This document shows, piece by piece, positions 394 to 7,271 of a DNA stretch of 7,271 bases. The stretch comes from a virus (lineage: Duplodnaviria; Heunggongvirae; Uroviricota; Caudoviricetes). The DNA lies in the IMG/VR virus record IMGVR_UViG_2548876942_000003, positions 1 to 7,271 of that record; one strand, 5' to 3'. The number at the start of each line of letters is the position of its first letter. Positions within the stretch are counted from its first letter, which is position 1. Under the pieces are notes generated by a model. The model did not search any database and was not told where the DNA came from. It saw nothing but the letters and a program-made list of their open reading frames with translations. The position numbers and the translations under genes are program-made.

Positions 394-3006
394 TCATTCT
401 TTAGGGTAGCGACCTTCCGCACCCGCCAGCATTTTTTGATATTCCCCGACCGGATCAAACCGCAGGTGCGTGGCATCAATGCCGTGGTTATCCCGTAAAT
501 GTTCCCATAATTTATTCACCGTCCGTGACTCATTAGGTAATTGACGCGTTATCAACTGGCCGCCAGCACTGGCTTGATAAAATTTCCCGCCAATCTCCAG
601 ACGGCTCCCCATTAACAGCGAAACGGCCTGAATCTCTGAAATCTCAACCAAACACAACGCCGCATCAGCCAGCAGACTGGCAACCGCAGGGGCAAGCGCT
701 GCCCGCCTGGCTTTATCAGCCACCGATCTGGCCTCGGTTTTTTCCACGGCAGAACGCCAGGCAACATCTAATTCGCTCCCTGGTTCATAAGGTGATCCGC
801 TGTGCCGCCTTTTGAATGGTGCTTCACGTAGTCGCCGTATCAATTTGCGCCGCGTTGGCTGGTCCATATTTTCAAAATCGACGATTTCCTCTTCTGATTC
901 TTCTGTAATACCCTCCACACCAGGCGAAAAATCGGTGATTTTTTCGTCTTCCGTAGAGTTATTGACAGAACTCCAAGCGTCGCCGGTTGGCGACGGCAAA
1001 AGGTCAACCCCCAAACCGGGGCCGCTTTTGGCCCCAGTGACGGTTTTGGATTTGGCTCGAATTTTCCACTTAACCAGACGGGTGCAAATACGGGAGGCAT
1101 CCCCCAGACGCGGCGACCAGACCCCGAAAACCTTTTCGGGGATCTCACAATAAGCATTCATTTCATCAGCGGGCTGATAGGCCAGACGTACGACATAGTT
1201 TTCTCGCGGGATCAAAACACCACCCTGGCGGATGATGTAAGTAGCAAAGCATCCGACATCGGCAGCGGCGCAAACCGCATCCATTGCAGGATCCACAAGC
1301 AATGGCGCACCACGTTTGAAGGTACTGTCAATTTTCTGTCGGGTCGTGATCTGATTACTAAGTTTGCGCAGCTCGCGGTAAACCGATATGGGCGGCTGTC
1401 CGATGGGCTGAAACTGGCGGATACGGTGAAGCGATGCCCAGGCCATTGCATATTTGGCGCTTTCATTCAGCGGCTTGCCGCTTTCGTCGTCCAGTTCACC
1501 GGCCAGCGCGTGGCCGTCGATATTCTTCGAAATGTATTTAGCGATGTATGCCGTTGCTGACCCTTTCCGTGGGTCCATTTTTTTTGACTTGAAACGAGCG
1601 CCGGTATTGCGGCCCAGCTCGTCGCGGTCTTCCGCAATGAAGTAGGTGCGAAGGATCGCAACCGTGGCTTTGACTTGCTCTTGTGGCATAAACAGCAACG
1701 CGTGCCAGTGTGGTGTCCCATCGTGATGCGGCTCGGCGACACGGAAGCCATAAGGGCGCAAATCTTCGCGTTTCAGTTTGGCGGTTGCCCGGTTCCACAC
1801 ACGGCATAAATAGCACTGCGCCTGGGCGACGGTGGAATGATTCCATTTGGCGTTATGGTGGCCGGATGCAATATTACTGTGATATTTCGACGGGCAAGTG
1901 ATTGTCAGGAAGATGCCAACATCGCCGCGACTTTGGGCAACAAGCTCAACCCCAGCCATTCGGGCCATAAGCTCATGGCGACGAATAGCCGGGTTTGACG
2001 TGGATTTATTAATCATGTCCTCAAGTGAGGAAACGTTGCCGTCTTCGTCTACCAGTTCATGACTTTTGAAAAAATCCCGGTTTTTACGGCGCTGTTCCTG
2101 CCACTCGATCAGGCTGGAAGCGCTAACGTATGCGTGCGCTTTTTTATTTACCGCGCCAACGGCTCGCAGCTGGTTTTCGCGCCAGTCACAACGCAGGCGC
2201 CAGATTTTGCGCCCCCACCAGTCAGGCGAAGCCATACGCAAAATGGCCGTACATATCCGATCACGTTCCCACGGCGCATACCATGCAGGCGGCACAATGC
2301 GAAGCGCCAGCATTTCGCGGCCCAGATGACAATAAAGCCAGTCCAGTTCTTCGACGTTCATGTCGGAAACATTCTGTCCCAGGGCTTCGCATTCCGTCCC
2401 CAGCATTTCAGCCATGCGGCTGGCGATCTCATTAGCGGCGCTTAGTGCTTCCCGCTTTGTGAAATCAGCCAGCCGTTGCCAGCGCCCGAACCAGTACGCG
2501 GCCAGTTCGCCGGTGATATCAGGCGAAACACCTTGCCTTGTGCGCACAACATCAAGACGCAGCAATGATTTTTTCACTGTCCCCATAAGAAAATCATTGG
2601 TGTGTCTGGTTTCACGGTTGACCCGTAACCACTCAATTTTTTTACGCCAGACTTCACGAATGAAGAACGGCTCTGATAATAAACGTGCTTCGACACCTTC
2701 TGGCGTATTGGCCCAGGCTGCCGCCGTGGCTTTAGCGGCTTCCATTTCTTGCCGGATTATATTTTGATGGGCGGCCAGTGGCAGGCCGCATGGTTCGTAC
2801 CTGTCCAGCGCCTGGATGAGCGCATCACGGTCACGAACTTCGGCGGGATTGTAACCGGCACGTTTGAAGATGTGATCGATATGTTTTTTTACGGCAGGAT
2901 GATGCGCCACCGCCCCAGCAAGCGGGGCGATTTTTTTCGGTTCATAGATGTACGGGCCAACAGCTGGACGCGGTGCGTTCCAAGGCCATGCGAAAGCGTT
3001 AGTCAT
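394..3006 (-). CDS. A: Phage replication initiation endonuclease gpA (HUH rolling-circle initiator, P2 gene A family)
   Basis: 870-codon ORF with ATG at 3006-3004 and TGA at 396-394. The translation contains a HUH-type metal-binding motif (PHWHALLF, encoded about 1700-1713) and a paired-tyrosine active-site motif (YIAKYISK, encoded about 1534-1548) of the phiX174 gpA / P2 gpA type. Position at the end of the cox-led early operon matches P2 gene order. The ORF is longer than the P2 gpA length I recall (about 760 aa), so the exact start is less certain than the identity. Confidence 0.9.
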   Translation of the reverse strand: MTNAFAWPWNAPRPAVGPYIYEPKKIAPLAGAVAHHPAVKKHIDHIFKRAGYNPAEVRDRDALIQALDRYEPCGLPLAAHQNIIRQEMEAAKATAAAWANTPEGVEARLLSEPFFIREVWRKKIEWLRVNRETRHTNDFLMGTVKKSLLRLDVVRTRQGVSPDITGELAAYWFGRWQRLADFTKREALSAANEIASRMAEMLGTECEALGQNVSDMNVEELDWLYCHLGREMLALRIVPPAWYAPWERDRICTAILRMASPDWWGRKIWRLRCDWRENQLRAVGAVNKKAHAYVSASSLIEWQEQRRKNRDFFKSHELVDEDGNVSSLEDMINKSTSNPAIRRHELMARMAGVELVAQSRGDVGIFLTITCPSKYHSNIASGHHNAKWNHSTVAQAQCYLCRVWNRATAKLKREDLRPYGFRVAEPHHDGTPHWHALLFMPQEQVKATVAILRTYFIAEDRDELGRNTGARFKSKKMDPRKGSATAYIAKYISKNIDGHALAGELDDESGKPLNESAKYAMAWASLHRIRQFQPIGQPPISVYRELRKLSNQITTRQKIDSTFKRGAPLLVDPAMDAVCAAADVGCFATYIIRQGGVLIPRENYVVRLAYQPADEMNAYCEIPEKVFGVWSPRLGDASRICTRLVKWKIRAKSKTVTGAKSGPGLGVDLLPSPTGDAWSSVNNSTEDEKITDFSPGVEGITEESEEEIVDFENMDQPTRRKLIRRLREAPFKRRHSGSPYEPGSELDVAWRSAVEKTEARSVADKARRAALAPAVASLLADAALCLVEISEIQAVSLLMGSRLEIGGKFYQASAGGQLITRQLPNESRTVNKLWEHLRDNHGIDATHLRFDPVGEYQKMLAGAEGRYPKE

Positions 3007-3893
3007 TCACATATGCCCGTAGAAGTCGCAACCTTGAGAATACCGATCACCTCACTGGCGGCCCCTCGGGTAATGGCGTTCGCGCTGACAGAACGGTTAA
3101 CGCTAATTTCCTGGAAGTTGAAAGAGCGATAAATCTCGCAGGTGGCTGGGGTGTCGCTATTGGACAGGATCACCGGCGAACCAGTAAGGCGGTTAATATC
3201 CAGCAGAGCGGCAGCTAACTGGCGATGCTCTTTAATCCCAAACGGGGCGGTGTGGTATTGGGTGAAATTAGCGGTTTCGCTTGTTGGCAGGTATGGCGGA
3301 TCGCAATAGATAACCGCGTCACTACCAATCATGATTTTTAACGTGCTCTGGAAATCGCAGCACACGAAAATAGCTTTCGTGTCGTTAGCTTTTTCAGAGA
3401 ATAAACGGATTTGTTCTTCCGGGAAGTAAAGCGGGGTTTTGTGACGCCCAAAGGGAACGTTATATCCACCCTGTTGGTTGTAGCGTACTACGCCGTTATA
3501 TCCGTGACGGTTCAGGTAAAGAAATTGTGCTGCACGAAGAATCTTGCCCGCGTCCGGCCCATCTTCAAACACACTGCGCAATGACAGTAGGTCACGGGCG
3601 CGGGCGTTGAAATCATCGCGGATCCACTTATAGCCGTCTTTATCGCCGTACACTTTAAACAGTGGGCGAGCAGCGTCGATCACCGCATCAGGCCAGCGGG
3701 TTATCTGGCGATACAGGTTAATTAAATCTGGGTTGATATCACCCAGGATATAACGGCGATATTCAGTATTGAGGAAAACAGAAGCACCGCCGACAAACGG
3801 TTCCACCAGGCAATCGGCTTTCGGCAGAATCGGCAGCAAATCAGGCATAACGCGGCCTTTACCACCGGGCCATTTAACGAGAGATCGAATCAT
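3003..3893 (-). CDS. dam: DNA adenine methyltransferase, Dam family (N6-adenine, likely GATC-specific)
   Basis: 296-aa ORF with ATG at 3893-3891. N-terminal WPGGK motif, SAM-binding EPFVGGASVF (FxGxG) and catalytic DPPY motif (VIYCDPPYLPTS), plus extended similarity to E. coli Dam as recalled from memory. Shine-Dalgarno GGAGAAAG lies upstream. The stop codon overlaps the gene A start (ATGA, 3003-3006), implying translational coupling. GATC specificity is inferred from family membership. Confidence 0.9.
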   Translation of the reverse strand: MIRSLVKWPGGKGRVMPDLLPILPKADCLVEPFVGGASVFLNTEYRRYILGDINPDLINLYRQITRWPDAVIDAARPLFKVYGDKDGYKWIRDDFNARARDLLSLRSVFEDGPDAGKILRAAQFLYLNRHGYNGVVRYNQQGGYNVPFGRHKTPLYFPEEQIRLFSEKANDTKAIFVCCDFQSTLKIMIGSDAVIYCDPPYLPTSETANFTQYHTAPFGIKEHRQLAAALLDINRLTGSPVILSNSDTPATCEIYRSFNFQEISVNRSVSANAITRGAASEVIGILKVATSTGICE

Positions 3894-4368: not shown

Positions 4369-4662
4369 CTACGCAAAGATGCCCATTAAGCGGGAAAACC
4401 AGCGGCGCTTATTACGCGGGCGCGACATAAACGGTACACGGCAGTTTTTAACAAATTGAACATCTGCCGCTTTAGGCTGGAAGAACCGCCCGTCCGGGGT
4501 TTCAATCCAGCCGCGTTGATGCTGACGGTGGGTGATCTGCTGGCCGTGGGTGAGCAGGCTGGCGAGTGAAGGGCACTGTGTTAAGTCCATGTTGATCTCC
4601 GTCATATTGAAAAGATGCCGGGATATAACCCCACGCCCGGCACGTGTTTCCTGTGATAACAT
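4369..4662 (-). CDS. Hypothetical small early-operon protein (97 aa from ATG 4662; alternatively 73 aa from ATG 4590)
   Basis: ORF in the early-operon orientation. The ATG at 4662 has only a weak AGG upstream; the internal in-frame ATG at 4590-4588 is preceded by GGAG with a 6-nt spacer and may be the true start. Basic, Arg-rich C-terminus (RPRNKRRWFSR). No recognisable domain. Confidence 0.45.
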   Translation of the reverse strand: MLSQETRAGRGVISRHLFNMTEINMDLTQCPSLASLLTHGQQITHRQHQRGWIETPDGRFFQPKAADVQFVKNCRVPFMSRPRNKRRWFSRLMGIFA

Positions 4663-4728
4663 CGCTATGCCTGTGTAACTTTGAGCAGTGAATCAGGCAT
4701 AACAATCACCAACACAGAAGGAGTTGTA

Positions 4729-5208
4729 ATGAAATTCAATGTGTTTTTTAAAAAAGACCACGGATCACACTGGGTACTTTCCGATGGTTCCCCCCTCTTT
4801 GAAAGTCCACTATTTGAAACAAGACCTAAAGCCATTGATGACCTTGAGAACTTTGTAGGCCTTATGGAATCGCCAATTTTTATTAAGGCTGGTGACGATA
4901 TTAATTCTGGCGATACAGAAAACTGTCCATCTGTAGTTATTTCTTTAAAACAGCATGAATCGCTATGGGGCTGGGAGTTATTTATCTCAAAAAATGGACA
5001 ACTGTCTAAAGTTACCGAAAGTTCAGGTAATGGCTTTGACTCATTAGAATTAGCAAAGCAAAGTGCCCAGTTTTTTATTAATGCCATTATCGACGCTCCT
5101 ATTCTGGATCAAGCCGATGTCGCTATCCCCGGTATGCACTTCTCAAAATCTTTCGAGGAAACGCACCACATTGGTGACATTCACCCATCCAGTAAATGGT
5201 TCAAATAA
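4729..5208 (+). CDS. Moron-like protein with tandem YegP/DUF1508-like repeats (159 aa), encoded antisense to the early operon
   Basis: The track ORF 4681-5208 starts at TTG; the in-frame ATG at 4729 is preceded by a strong Shine-Dalgarno (GAAGGAG, 6-nt spacer). The region is visibly AT-rich (about 37-40% G+C by hand count of a sample) versus more than 50% in A and dam. The translation shows two repeats whose hydrophobic pattern resembles the YegP/DUF1508 repeat as I recall it (KFNVFFKKDHGSHWVLSDGSPLFESP...AIDDLENFV and WGWELFISKNGQLSKVTESSGNGFDSLELAKQSAQFFINAI). The family assignment is from memory, not a search. Confidence 0.55.
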   Translation: MKFNVFFKKDHGSHWVLSDGSPLFESPLFETRPKAIDDLENFVGLMESPIFIKAGDDINSGDTENCPSVVISLKQHESLWGWELFISKNGQLSKVTESSGNGFDSLELAKQSAQFFINAIIDAPILDQADVAIPGMHFSKSFEETHHIGDIHPSSKWFK

Positions 5209-5212
5209 TCCA

Positions 5213-5560
5213 TCACTGCGGCGTTATCGTTTTTCTTGTGCGAGGTGGAACATCTCGCACGGTTTCTTCATCAACCATCAACTCATAAATTCTGATGCTG
5301 TTATCACCGTTTGATACGTCATCAAATACCTGAAAAAGAAAACTCATGAACTGCTCATAAGTGACGCTAGGTTCAACATACCCACCAGTAACCTCAATTA
5401 ACGGTGTTAGCCCTGAATTATCTGCTAAAGAAACGCAGTCCAACTTATCCAAACGGAAAAAGTAATTACCGCAAGGCGTTCTTTTGTCCTTAATCCGTAT
5501 AAATACATTTGATAACGCTGTATGACTATCTGAGAGCTTAAAGATTTTTGCCGTGTCCAT
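5213..5560 (-). CDS. Hypothetical AT-rich early protein (115 aa) immediately downstream of cox
   Basis: ORF with ATG at 5560-5558, 22 nt after the cox stop codon, same strand as the early operon. AT-rich like the neighbouring plus-strand gene. No recognisable domain, signal peptide or transmembrane segment in the translation. Its stop (5213-5215) lies 4 bp from the stop of the convergent plus-strand gene. Confidence 0.5.
   Translation of the reverse strand: MDTAKIFKLSDSHTALSNVFIRIKDKRTPCGNYFFRLDKLDCVSLADNSGLTPLIEVTGGYVEPSVTYEQFMSFLFQVFDDVSNGDNSIRIYELMVDEETVRDVPPRTRKTITPQ
5238..5268 (+). terminator. Candidate intrinsic terminator for the plus-strand moron gene
   Basis: 7-bp GC-rich inverted repeat GTGCGAG (5238-5244) / CTCGCAC (5254-5260) with a 9-nt loop, followed by GGTTTCTT. 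It begins 30 nt after the TAA of the 4729-5208 gene. A T-tract is present only on the + strand. Short stem and interrupted T-run, so weak. Confidence 0.3.
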
Positions 5561-5582: not shown

Positions 5583-5858
5583 TTATGATGGATTGCCCAG
5601 ACCCAACCACATTAACCACCCTTCCCTAATTTCCTTGGGACGACTCTCATACGCCATTTTCATTCCGTTGTTCCAGGCTGGGAGGTAGACCCAGTACTCA
5701 CCTGCCCGCCCTGAAGTTGATTGCGGATCAGTCATCTCAACTACGGGTAGCTTTCCTTTTTCAATCATTCCCCTTACTGCTGCCGGTGTTTTGCCGATCA
5801 GTTTTGCAAACTCCTGGTACGGGACAGCATCACTAATACTGACAACTTGTTTGCTCAT
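5583..5858 (-). CDS. cox: Cox-type excisionase / lytic-switch repressor of Pc (P2 Cox family)
   Basis: 91-aa ORF, the same length as P2 Cox, with close similarity to the P2 Cox sequence as recalled (PYQEFAKLIGK...GKLPV..MTDPQS.SGRAGEYWVYLPAWNNG...YESRPKEIR.GWLMWLGLG). Shine-Dalgarno GAGGT lies 7 nt upstream of the ATG at 5858. Divergent from the C repressor gene, as in P2. Confidence 0.9.
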   Translation of the reverse strand: MSKQVVSISDAVPYQEFAKLIGKTPAAVRGMIEKGKLPVVEMTDPQSTSGRAGEYWVYLPAWNNGMKMAYESRPKEIREGWLMWLGLGNPS

Positions 5859-5981
5859 CTGCTAACCTCGTATCTAGATCTAACCAATGGGTTTCAAAGT
5901 TCTTTAATGGGCTTTGATGCACATTGACAACATCTAAAACCACATTAGAGAGTTTCGATAATATTAGAGGATCTTGATAAC
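5859..5981. promoter_or_regulatory. cox-C divergent intergenic switch region (Pe/Pc, operator region)
   Basis: 123-bp spacer between the divergent cox and C start codons. Besides the Pe elements it contains a plus-strand perfect TTGACA (5924-5929), a plus-strand TTTAAT (5903-5908) that could serve as the Pc -10 in a face-to-face arrangement, overlapping palindromes ATCTAGAT / TAGATCTA (5873-5883) that include a GATC, and one Cox-box-like TTAAAG on the minus strand (about 5902-5907). Pc cannot be placed uniquely from sequence alone. Confidence 0.6.
5944..5969. promoter_or_regulatory. Direct repeats ATTAGAG flanking the Pe -10 region; candidate C-repressor operator half-sites
   Basis: ATTAGAG occurs at 5944-5950 and 5963-5969 (extended ATTAGAGAG / ATTAGAGGA), 19 bp apart. 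One copy overlaps the candidate Pe -10 and the other lies just downstream of the predicted start. P2 C is known to bind direct repeats flanking the Pe -10; the assignment here is by analogy. Confidence 0.4.
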
Positions 5982-5988
5982 ATGTCAA
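5954..5988 (-). promoter_or_regulatory. Candidate early promoter Pe (sigma70-type) driving cox and the early operon
   Basis: Seen in sequence on the minus strand: perfect -35 TTGACA (plus-strand TGTCAA, 5983-5988, overlapping the first codons of C), a 16-bp spacer, and -10 TAATAT (plus-strand ATATTA, 5961-5966). Predicted start is near 5954, giving a leader of about 95 nt to the cox ATG. A GATC (5970-5973) sits in the spacer. Assignment as Pe is by analogy to the P2 switch. Confidence 0.5.
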
Positions 5989-6281
5989 CGCCCATAAGCG
6001 AAAAACTAGCGTTAGTTCGTGAGTCTGAGCGACTAAACCGGAAGCAATTCGCTGAAATAACAGGAGTTCCTTACAGTTCTCTAACTTATTATGAGAGCGG
6101 AAGAACTACGCCCCCCACTGACGTAACAATGAAAATTCTCCAGCACCCCAGATTTAGCAAATACACGTTGTGGTTTATGACCGATCAGGTTGCTCCCGAA
6201 GCCGGTCAGATAGCACCGGCCCTCGCACACTTTGGGCAAGATGTAACAACATCGCAGCACTCAGACCAAAAGATTGGTTAA
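5982..6281 (+). CDS. C: Immunity repressor C (P2 C family, 99 aa)
   Basis: 99-aa ORF, the same length as P2 C, with strong similarity to P2 C as recalled (ISEK..L.R.SE.L.R.Q.A..TGVPY..L.YYESGR.TPPTDV.M.ILQ.P.F.KYTLWFMT.Q.APE.GQIAPALAHFGQ). Shine-Dalgarno AGAGGA upstream. Divergent from cox and followed by int, as in P2. Confidence 0.9.
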   Translation: MSTPISEKLALVRESERLNRKQFAEITGVPYSSLTYYESGRTTPPTDVTMKILQHPRFSKYTLWFMTDQVAPEAGQIAPALAHFGQDVTTSQHSDQKIG

Positions 6282-6426: not shown

Positions 6427-7233
6427 ATGACAATTAAGAAACTCGATGATGGTCGTTATGAAGTGGACATCAGACCTGCAGGGCGCAACGGAAAGCGCAT
6501 CCGCAGGAAATTTGACAAGAAAAGTGAGGCTGTAGCTTTTGAGAAACACACTCAATACAACCATCACGATAAAGAATGGTTGGCTAAACCGACAGATAAG
6601 CGGCATCTGTCTGAATTAACGAAAGTCTGGTGGGATCTGAAAGGCAAGCATGAAGAACACGGAAAATCTAATTTGGGTAAGATTGAAATCTTTACCCGGA
6701 TCACTGATGACCCTTGCGCGTTCCAGATAACCAAAGCGCTTATTAGCCAGTACAGCATGACTCGCAGAGGGCAAGGCATAAAACCGGCCAGTATTAACCG
6801 CGATCTTACCTGCCTGAGTGGTATGTTTACTGCGCTAATTGATGCGGAATTGTTCTTTGGTGAACATCCTTTCAGAGGGATGAAAAAGCTCAAGGAGCAG
6901 AAACCAGAAACCGGCTATCTGACGCAGGAAGAAATAACATTGTTGCTTGCCAATCTTGACGGGGACAACAAGAAAATCGCGATTCTCTGTTTAAGTACCG
7001 GCGCTCGATGGGGTGAGGCCGCGAAACTGAAAGCTGAGAACGTAATACAGAATCGGGTGACGTTCGTTAAAACAAAGACGAACAAACCGCGTACTGTCCC
7101 TATCTCTGAGGAAGTGGCTGTAATGATTGCGGGTAAAGGTTATCTGTTCCCTGATGCCTCATACCCGAAGTTCAGGCGAACAATGAAAGATGTAAAACCA
7201 GATCTACCGGACGGGCGTAAGCGTACAGCCTGA
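6427..7233 (+). CDS. int: P2-type tyrosine integrase, N-terminal 268 codons only; the C-terminal catalytic region (HxLRH box and active-site Tyr) is not encoded before the in-frame stop, so likely truncated or disrupted
   Basis: ATG at 6427. The translation matches the P2 Int N-terminal and core-binding region as recalled (MTIKKLDDGRYEVDIRPAGRNGKRIRRKFDKKSEAVAFEK ... LSTGARWGEAAKLKAEN ... VTFVKTKTNKPRTVPIS) up to ...KPDLP (about 7213). It then diverges and hits TGA at 7231-7233. P2 Int is 337 aa, and none of the three forward frames after 7210 encodes an HxLRH-like motif. Confidence 0.75.
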   Translation: MTIKKLDDGRYEVDIRPAGRNGKRIRRKFDKKSEAVAFEKHTQYNHHDKEWLAKPTDKRHLSELTKVWWDLKGKHEEHGKSNLGKIEIFTRITDDPCAFQITKALISQYSMTRRGQGIKPASINRDLTCLSGMFTALIDAELFFGEHPFRGMKKLKEQKPETGYLTQEEITLLLANLDGDNKKIAILCLSTGARWGEAAKLKAENVIQNRVTFVKTKTNKPRTVPISEEVAVMIAGKGYLFPDASYPKFRRTMKDVKPDLPDGRKRTA

Positions 7234-7271
7234 ACCGTCTGGTCAGAATCTGACGAATTAGACAAAGTGGT

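Follow-up and report, generated by a model that had tools for sequence, protein, structure and literature searches.

The closest described system is the lysis-lysogeny switch of phage P2. According to the GenBank annotation of P2, the -35 element of the early promoter Pe lies one base into the repressor gene C, and the operators O1 and O2 are 8-bp repeats located 22 bp apart around the -10 element. The start of the opposing promoter Pc has been mapped by primer extension. The recognition helix of P2 C consists of residues 31-39, of which T33 is essential, and the C dimer spans two consecutive major grooves. In footprints, C protects O1, O2, the spacer and a fourth patch located downstream of O2. 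The Cox boxes follow the consensus TTAAA(G/C)NC(A/C) with a spacing of 10-11 bp (PMC3936717).

Heteroimmune P2-like coliphages use other operators. In W-phi the repeats are 10 bp long at a distance of 34 bp, and in P2 Hy dis they are 8 bp long at 26 bp. Within an immunity class the C proteins are at least 95% identical, and the tentative classes VIII-X hold uncharacterised C/spacer types found in E. coli prophages only (Nilsson et al. 2011, PMC3448106). PhiECO4 (class VIII) resides in the O103:H2 strain E22. In the more distant phage 186 the repressor CI has 196 aa and two domains, binds inverted repeats and distal operators, and is accompanied by a CII-activated establishment promoter.

Here, we analysed a 7,271-nt stretch of DNA, below called the window, and found the gene order of P2: cox on the minus strand (5583-5858), C on the plus strand (5982-6281) and int on the plus strand (from 6427). 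Thus, a divergent Cox homologue heads the early operon, and in the lysogenic operon int comes after C. The genes cox and C are separated by a 123-bp spacer, very probably the switch between lysis and lysogeny in a P2-like prophage (Peduoviridae) with an uncharacterised immunity type. The region is ordinary repressor/promoter control of an E. coli P2-family prophage, i.e. a known switch with its own version of the operator, and the mechanism is not new.

The C gene encodes a small HTH repressor of 99 aa (Pfam HTH_3), close to the approximately 100 aa of this group, with 71% identity to P2 C along its full length (70.7% by tblastn). It matches the solved structure of P2 C (PDB 2XCJ/2L49, E=1.2e-44) and phrog_147 (4e-41). 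[quoted passage not shown] The probable Shine-Dalgarno sequence of the window's cox, GAGG (5866-5869, minus strand), is located 7 nt before the start codon and is kept in the relatives. The integrase (6427-7216; Pfam Int_N and Phage_integrase) lies downstream of C as in P2, and is truncated at 7217 by the end of a multi-copy IS66-family element (ISEc8), the same position where divergence from intact relatives begins. For the early-region open reading frames of unknown function, neither PADLOC nor Pfam gave a match. The window also contains a gene similar to Fil of phage 186.

A strong early promoter towards cox is predicted on the minus strand. Pe has a perfect TTGACA -35 element (5983-5988), found by the consensus scan, and, after a 16-bp spacer, the -10 element TAATAT (5961-5966), in total 10 out of 12 consensus matches. 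An alternative -10 register, AATATT (5960-5965), uses the same -35 element with a 17-bp spacer. Apart from these two readings, which overlap, no promoter-like match was found on either strand between 5700 and 6150 (shuffled sequences give 0.6 +/- 0.6 matches). In a position weight matrix (PWM) scan Pe is the top minus-strand match of the window, with 12.9 bits, and is also the top match in all 15 relatives scanned; as a control, the scan recovers the known Pe of P2 at 14.4 bits. We consider Pe to be a strong sigma-70 promoter with a predicted start at about 5954. The first-pass annotation had proposed this promoter with the same two hexamers and 16-bp spacer and placed its -35 element on the C start codon, and both proposals hold. 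The -35 element is inside codons 1-3 of C and overlaps the ATG (5982-5984) by 2 nt, in the same register as in the annotated P2, and the P2 -10 element, TAGTAT, shares the position of TAATAT. The sequence TGTCAA is found in 82 of 83 distinct related spacers (as ATGTCAA or GTGTCAA), always with TCA as the serine codon.

As in P2, direct, non-palindromic repeats are found around the Pe -10 element, and we predict that these are the operators of C. Two copies of the heptamer ATTAGAG, and no more, are present in the window (5944-5950 and 5963-5969; 0.52 expected; at least two copies in 19 of 200 shuffles). It was earlier noted that the two copies flank the -10 element; both are present, but the second overlaps the hexamer by 4 nt. 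Each copy begins a 19-nt unit, and the two units, 5944-5962 and 5963-5981, lie in tandem and are identical at 14 of 19 positions. When the 123-bp spacer is shuffled, a 7-nt direct repeat within 40 bp is obtained with P ~0.18 and a 14/19 tandem repeat with P ~0.01. Such single-window repeat statistics are weak, and the strong evidence is comparative.

We compared 45 distinct spacers from relatives whose C has the same helix 3, with serine at residue 32 (S32). In these, TAGAG is found at three offsets from the C ATG, -17, -36/-37 and -56/-57, i.e. three units, 19-20 bp apart. The proximal copy at -17 is present in 45 out of 45, and TAGAR is present at -36/-37, the middle unit, in nearly all. The first four core positions carry about 1.6-2.0 bits and the fifth 0.8-1.0 bits in the middle and distal units, compared with 0.1-0.5 for neighbouring positions. 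For the middle unit the fifth position has 0.8 bits, and the positions that flank the core have 0.3-0.4. The density of TAGAG is 37.6 per kb in the operator zone versus 0.38 per kb in the flanks, a difference of about 100-fold. The proximal copy overlaps the Pe -10 element and the C Shine-Dalgarno sequence, which are other possible causes of its invariance, so that clean evidence comes from the middle and distal copies only. The fixed positions in the relatives, together with the same layout in the annotated P2, support the earlier suggestion of a P2-like logic in which C binds direct repeats around the -10 element of Pe.

The predicted proximal unit (5963-5981, plus strand, ATTAGAGGATCTTGATAAC) aligns with the O1 region of P2 and covers part of the Pe -10 element and the entire Pe spacer; it also includes the probable C Shine-Dalgarno sequence, GAGG (5967-5970), and a GATC site (5970-5973). 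The middle unit (5944-5962, plus strand, ATTAGAGAGTTTCGATAAT) covers the Pe start and extends to about +10; it consists of the blocks TAGAG and CGATAA. A degenerate third unit is predicted at 5924-5943 on the plus strand; it contains a TTGACA (5924-5929), and the distal TAGAG of the relatives corresponds to position 5925/5926 of the window. The TAGAG and YGAnAA blocks of a unit are about one helical turn apart, which suggests that one C dimer binds each unit. Such bipartite units would fit the geometry of the P2 C dimer and its four-patch footprint. Our repeat search, with a minimum length of 8, missed the known O1 and O2 in P2, so that the absence of repeats in other immunity groups is uninformative.

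The operator sequence follows the recognition helix. All seven sequences in which residue 32 of C is a threonine (T32) have TAAAG instead of TAGAG, and residue 32 of C is the one column, among all those of C and Cox, that separates the operator types. One relative, L030, combines a window-like Cox with a T32 C and TAAAG. For another, L112, the nearest C gene is of the S32 type, which suggests that the T32/TAAAG state arose more than once. The covariation rests on perhaps two to three independent lineages. The invariant block ATCTAGATCTAAC (5872-5884), far upstream, is similar to the P2 half-site as well as to the units and was considered as a fourth C site. It was rejected, since it does not covary: its sequence is the same whether C is of the S32 or the T32 type. 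It may instead be part of the Cox array, of the Pc -35 region or of the cox leader.

Compared with P2 C, helix 3 of the window's C has the substitutions G32S, T33S and S35T. The half-site is TAGAG (plus YGAnAA) and not the P2 ATCTAAAC, of which no pair at 22 bp is found; the repeat spacing is 19 bp versus 22 bp, and the 19-nt unit is bipartite. The repeats are therefore not those of P2 immunity class I, nor is a C identity of 71%. Due to the different half-sites, the three helix-3 substitutions and a C identity of 71%, compared with at least 95% within classes, the window phage should be heteroimmune to P2. The first-pass annotation had read a distinct immunity from the spacing of 19 bp against 22 bp. 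The 22 bp is correct for P2 and the type does differ from P2, but the spacing itself is not diagnostic of specificity, since phages that share one recognition helix have either 19 or 20 bp, and changes in repeat spacing are tolerated by W-phi C.

A comparison with the repeats of P2, W-phi and other types, as had been proposed, places the window in the known pattern, in which the sequence, length, spacing and position of the repeats vary from class to class, and sets it apart from P2. Its C stands far nearer to P2 than to the W-phi type, as judged from a band of phage hits at about 46% identity and not from W-phi C itself. [quoted passage not shown] The switch of phage 186 shares the convergent lytic and lysogenic promoters and a second repressor of the Cox/Apl type that doubles as excisionase; its two-domain CI, inverted-repeat and distal operators and CII-activated promoter are all absent from the window.

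A tblastn search with C against 50,697 phage records gave 74.7% as the best identity (a Klebsiella phage) and 70.7% for P2, and no record reached 95%. The exact protein is however common in bacterial assemblies, with at least 1000 contigs, and 19 out of 5426 complete E. coli genomes carry it. The C type occurs in O103:H2, O45:H2 and O111:H2 strains. It shares the O103:H2 host serotype with PhiECO4 of the tentative class VIII, and its likeness to classes VIII-X is one of serotype and description and not of sequence. We found no description of this immunity type in the literature available to search, and it is apparently uncharacterised.

The position of Pc is less clear-cut, as the first-pass annotation had stated, and we considered three plus-strand candidates. 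Pc is most likely located at TTTAAT (5903-5908), which aligns with the Pc -10 element of P2, TATAAT, and has a predicted start at about 5915 with a weak or absent -35 element. As had been pointed out, this hexamer would result in face-to-face promoters with a transcript overlap of about 40 nt, close to the approximately 35 nt measured in P2; the window spacer is 123 bp long, versus 114 bp in P2. TTTAAT lacks the critical A at position 2, a position that is T, G, C or A across the relatives, and it was reported by neither the consensus scan nor the PWM scan.

The second candidate uses the plus-strand TTGACA at 5924-5929 as the -35 element, with GAGAGT (5948-5953) after an 18-bp spacer and a start at about 5960. 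This would place the two promoters back to back and overlapping, both under the C units, with tight self-repression by C as the result; autoregulation of Pc by P2 C is known. This is the best plus-strand PWM match in the window, at 10.2 bits; with a 17-bp spacer the same reading reaches 11.4 in Kluyvera relatives, and both exceed the mapped Pc of P2 (8.8). The TTG of the hexamer is also retained in eight out of eight close variants. However, GAGAGT matches the consensus at only three of six positions, and the site was not reported by the consensus scan. Among close relatives, the hexamer reads TTGACA, TTGCCA, TTGCTA or CTGACA, varying at positions 4-5 (AC, CC, CT), and a 1-bp indel lies downstream of it; the 26-bp stretch around it is the most variable part of the spacer. 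At this position the approximately 45 wider relatives that share helix 3 carry TAGAG and no TTGACA, and would require a different Pc despite a near-identical upstream block. Further, the P2-homologous -10 element and the Cox boxes are located upstream of it. We consider this promoter unlikely, although it is the better of the two alternatives to TTTAAT. The TTGACA that had been noted earlier is present, but it is more probably the remnant of a third operator unit, and less probably a -35 element.

Still less probable is a Pc partly within cox, with CTGACA (5839-5844), an 18-bp spacer, TAACCT (5863-5868) and a start at about 5875, resulting in a convergent overlap of about 80 nt. In the window, as in most of the relatives that were scanned, the pair is among the top plus-strand PWM matches (8.2 bits), and analogous TTACAA-17-TAC(A/G)(T/A)T matches are found in two other immunity groups. 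But the two hexamers overlap cox codons 5-7 and the cox Shine-Dalgarno sequence, which are under constraints of their own, so the conservation of the hexamers is uninformative, and P2 has no counterpart. The transcript overlap of 82 nt in W-phi is comparable in length; W-phi is nevertheless no precedent, since its spacer is simply longer (152 bp) and its Pc is still inside it.

The Cox boxes are in agreement with a Pc at TTTAAT. A motif scan of the minus strand identified three matches to eight of the nine consensus positions, 5888-5896, 5899-5907 and 5909-5917, spaced 10-11 bp, that cover the candidate Pc -10 element and have weaker boxes on both sides. Their homologues in P2 (587-595, 596-604 and 606-614 of the P2 record, L001) have the same place and orientation. 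The enrichment over shuffled sequences is borderline (P ~0.05), and the array has three to four good boxes, compared with at least six described in the literature.

The TAGAG repeats themselves could in principle be extra Cox boxes, a by-product of the Pe -10 element and the C ribosome binding site, or chance. The ATTAGAG repeat by itself is insignificant in the window (P ~0.18), and the proximal copy does overlap both the -10 element and the Shine-Dalgarno sequence. TTAGAG resembles the Cox-box core TTAAAG, TTAGAGGAT fits six of nine Cox-box positions, and an inverted TTAGAGAAC is present over the Pc region in the relatives. On the other hand, the middle and distal copies are at fixed positions in the 45 spacers with no -10 or Shine-Dalgarno role. 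The TAGAG/TAAAG state tracks C residue 32 and no Cox residue, is uncoupled from the Cox type in L030, and the box over Pc shows no covariation with the C type. In view of the period of 19-20 bp against 10-11 bp, and of an operator state that follows C, we rejected the units as Cox boxes, and we find it very improbable that the repeats are anything other than C operators. Least credible of all is a regulatory hairpin in the cox leader RNA, formed by an inverted repeat (5875-5899/5912-5936) and masking the cox ribosome binding site: the 105-nt leader folds favourably (-26.6 kcal/mol, z=-2.4, with 7 of 200 shuffles as good), but the long hairpin does not reappear across 26 related leaders, for which only nine local pairs are predicted, none compensatory, with a covariation term of about zero.

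We propose that the switch would work as follows. Pe (minus strand, -35 at 5988-5983, -10 at 5966-5961) would drive cox and the early operon. C, as an HTH dimer, would bind the two tandem 19-bp units, 5963-5981 and 5944-5962, each through a TAGAG block and a YGAnAA block, and when bound would occlude the spacer, the -10 element and the start site of Pe, turning the lytic operon off. A weak Pc facing Pe would transcribe C and int, and Cox, bound to the array of boxes that covers Pc (5888-5917 and beyond), would prevent the repressor from being made.

More tentatively, these features can be combined into a proposal that as a whole we regard as possible but not probable. In this branch of the P2 family, the operator would comprise up to three bipartite units of 19-20 bp (TAGAG-N5-YGAnAA) in an array instead of a pair of 8-bp half-sites, probably with one C dimer per unit. 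A single Ser/Thr exchange at residue 32 of helix 3 would retarget C from TAGAG to TAAAG, and different lineages would keep different pairs of units. P2 itself carries a decayed third repeat, ATCCAAGC, 22 bp beyond O2. In the window the third unit would have been replaced by a perfect -35 element, which may create a second, C-repressed C promoter back to back with Pe.

For annotation, the cox-C spacer is ordinary prophage regulatory DNA. For the P2 family, it adds a well-defined, apparently uncharacterised immunity type. It also provides comparative predictions on the reading of direct repeats by a symmetric HTH dimer, namely that the unit is bipartite and 19-20 bp long, that Ser32/Thr32 to G/A is a natural specificity pair, and that most relatives have a third operator unit. 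These predictions bear on the question raised by the crystal structure of P2 C, namely how two identical helices bind different sequences. In pathogenic E. coli (O103, O45, O111), superinfection immunity among P2-like prophages probably differs from that of P2.

The window holds, in the opposite orientation to the usual P2 map, the early and immunity region of a P2-like (Peduoviridae) prophage. Genes on the minus strand include a homologue of the replication initiator A (394-3006), an orphan Dam-like adenine methyltransferase (3003-3893) with a stop codon that overlaps the start of the A gene, a 186 Fil-like cell-division inhibitor (4369-4662), an early-operon 115-aa protein of unknown function (phrog_10410; 5213-5560) located where P2 has orf78 and B, and cox (5583-5858). 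The repressor gene C (5982-6281) and the integrase gene (6427 to 7216) are on the plus strand.

We compared the 123-bp cox-C spacer with P2. The Pe hexamers, the ATTAGAG pair, TTTAAT and a plus-strand TTGACA are all present where the first-pass annotation placed them, and its interpretation of the switch is supported, with refinements. The minus-strand TTGACA (5988..5983), 16 bp from TAATAT (5966..5961), is the sole sigma-70-like match in 5700-6150 besides an overlapping 17-bp register (AATATT). This Pe -35 overlaps the C ATG (5982-5984), and the P2 record is annotated in the same way: turned to the window orientation, it places the Pe -35 one base inside the C ORF, just as here, and the Pe -10 follows after a 17-bp spacer, flanked by O1 and O2 (ATCTAAAC, 22 bp apart). 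The C proteins are 71% identical and the Cox proteins 80%, and the window C matches the solved P2 C structure (E=1e-44). TGTCAA on the C start is kept in 82 of 83 distinct spacers, always with the TCA serine codon. The 22-bp repeat spacing that the first-pass annotation gives for P2 agrees with the record and with the literature, in which 8-bp half-sites are 22 bp apart in P2, and the spacing is 26 bp in P2 Hy dis and 34 bp in W-phi.

TTTAAT (5903-5908, plus strand), a candidate Pc -10, aligns with the upstream P2 Pc -10, TATAAT. The predicted starts (Pe ~5954, Pc ~5915) would give the proposed overlap of ~40 nt; in P2 the transcripts overlap by ~35 nt, with starts mapped by primer extension. 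TTTAAT lacks the critical A at position 2 and its counterparts in relatives vary (TCTAAT, TGTAAT, TTTAAT, TATAAT), therefore Pc is either weak, as the P2 Pc is reported to be, or located elsewhere. A third candidate for Pc is CTGACA-18-TAACCT (5839-5868), which is conserved but shares its sequence with cox codons and with the ribosome-binding site of that gene.

ATTAGAG is found in the whole window only at 5944-5950 and 5963-5969, and both copies start a 19-nt tandem repeat (5944-5962 and 5963-5981, 14/19 identical), the middle and proximal units of the putative C operator. By themselves the repeats are only modestly unusual; in shuffled spacers P is ~0.18 for the 7-mer repeat and ~0.01 for the 19-mer repeat. 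About 160 related loci were taken from genomes, viral contigs and metagenomes, giving the 83 distinct spacers, and the operator was compared in the 45 that have the same C recognition helix (PYSSLTYYESGR) as the window. Counted from the C ATG, TAGAG is present at -17 in all 45. Nearly all have TAGAR at -36 or -37, and every lineage but the window's own has another TAGAG at -56 or -57. The proximal and middle units are 19 bp apart in 26 spacers and 20 bp apart in the other 19. For the distal unit an offset of 20 bp fits best in 45/45, a nominal value for the window lineage, which has no distal TAGAG. In the middle and distal units core positions 1-4 hold ~1.6-2.0 bits and position 5 0.8-1.0, compared with 0.1-0.5 for the neighbours, and the TAGAG density in the operator zone is ~100 times that of the flanks. 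A weaker second block, YGAnAA, follows ~10-11 bp downstream of each TAGAG, so that the unit consensus becomes TTAGAGnATcTcGAaAA. This bipartite unit fits the published P2 C dimer, whose two recognition helices face consecutive major grooves, and the P2 C footprint, in which O1, O2, the spacer between them and a stretch beyond O2 are protected as four patches. In the alignment, the second block is the counterpart of the P2 8-bp half-site.

Most relatives with the same helix 3 have three operator units, not two (L004-L061, L097-L111 and others; -57 to -1). In some lineages (L007, L056, L113) the middle unit has decayed, and the proximal and distal units remain, ~39-41 bp from each other. The P2-type relative L062 (1447-1497) contains three TCTAAA[CT] repeats with 22-bp spacing, and P2 itself (L001 623-630) has ATCCAAGC, with 6/8 matches, exactly 22 bp past O2. 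No description of a third C site was found in the literature that could be examined.

The plus-strand TTGACA (5924-5929) lies exactly at the position of the relatives' distal TAGAG, and what follows it (CATCTAAAAC) is still similar to a unit's second block. We compared the eight nearest spacer variants, whose C proteins share the N-terminal HTH half with the window C. The hexamer is TTGACA, TTGCCA or TTGCTA in these, and CTGACA in one viral contig; a 1-bp indel occurs downstream. No other part of the spacer varies as much as this 26-bp stretch, and the two good units hardly vary at all. Its best -10 partner is GAGAGT (18 bp away here, 17 bp in Kluyvera relatives), and a simple PWM gives the pair 10.2-11.4 bits, above the true P2 Pc (8.8 bits). 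The hexamer is accordingly read as a decayed third operator unit; a functional -35 at this place is unlikely.

In seven sequences C residue 32, in the recognition helix, is Thr instead of Ser, and TAAAG replaces TAGAG in 7/7. Among 44 distinct C/Cox/operator combinations with an extractable cox, four of them T32, no C or Cox column other than this residue separates the two operator types. The T32 phage L030 has a Cox nearly identical to that of the window, i.e. the operator follows C, not Cox. L112 (T32) is nearer to S32 genes than to those of the other T32 sequences, and L009 (T32) uses a different Thr codon, which points to two or three independent events. Within the T32 clade, concerted changes are seen in the distal and proximal units, e.g. 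ATTAAAGAATCTAGA and ATTAAAGGATCTAGA, 41 bp apart.

Three Cox-box matches homologous to the P2 boxes (5888-5896, 5899-5907, 5909-5917), each 8/9 to consensus, share one orientation at 10-11 bp spacing; TTTAAT lies beneath them. The block ATCTAGATCTAAC (5872-5884), in the cox leader/Pc -35 region, is kept unchanged by nearly all relatives of the window's C group, shows no covariation with C type among relatives, and holds overlapping palindromes and a GATC (5877-5880). A second GATC (5970-5973) is inside the proximal unit. Methylation-sensitive regulation at these sites is conceivable, since the phage has a Dam-like methylase gene of its own. A long hairpin in the cox leader was rejected, as it is not conserved among relatives.

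Compared with P2 the early operon is mosaic (methyltransferase, Fil-like gene, 115-aa protein), and some relatives with a near-identical C carry P2 B/RepB-type genes at that place instead. A 175-aa plus-strand ORF (4681-5208) overlaps a minus-strand ORF (4665-5087), antisense within the otherwise minus-strand early operon. Its match to phrog_9021 (E=3e-112) begins at residue 17, which makes a start near 4729 likely, and the ORF looks like a moron-type insert; its counterpart in E. coli 2011C-4251 is annotated as a hypothetical protein. Neither this ORF nor the early-region ORFs of unknown function gave a match in Pfam or in defence-system (PADLOC) searches.

The integrase gene breaks off after ...PDLPDG, and positions 7217 to 7271 belong to the left end (GTAAGCGTACAGCCTGAACCG...) of an IS66-family element, known as ISEc8 in annotations elsewhere. 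Intact relatives read on as QATHALRHSF..., so the window integrase has lost its C-terminal third together with the conserved catalytic-domain motif, and this prophage copy is probably unable to excise by itself. This left end is found in 3406/5426 complete E. coli genomes, the exact junction in none of the 5426. Nineteen of these genomes contain an identical C-cox segment, always in the chromosome, among them O103:H2, O45:H2 and O111:H2 strains. Strain 2011C-4251, with an identical switch, has an IS3-family element (L164 1899-3112) ~50 nt downstream of the homologue of the 115-aa gene next to cox (annotated 11 residues shorter, 315 nt vs 348 nt), between it and the plus-strand ORF, thus prophage copies differ in their IS insertions.

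The exact C protein occurs in at least 1000 contigs, under generic names only, and no C more than 74.7% identical was found in any sequenced phage record. P2 immunity classes are defined in the literature by a C identity of at least 95%. Helix 3 differs from P2 C by G32S, T33S and S35T; T33 is reported as essential for P2 C binding and S35 as placed to contact DNA. With these changes, a C identity of 71% and no P2 half-site pair in the window, the phage is likely heteroimmune to P2, as judged from sequence. The distinct specificity proposed earlier is thus likely, but its original basis, a 19-bp against a 22-bp spacing, is no reliable marker, since both 19 and 20 bp are found with a single helix sequence and W-phi C is reported to tolerate altered spacing. 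The type may be the tentative class VIII (PhiECO4 of O103:H2 strain E22). The switch belongs to the known P2-type C/Cox family and is a new, previously uncharacterised member of it. The comparison gives a sharper operator model, hypothesis-generating rather than surprising, in which the units are bipartite, most relatives have three of them, and Ser/Thr to G/A forms a specificity pair.
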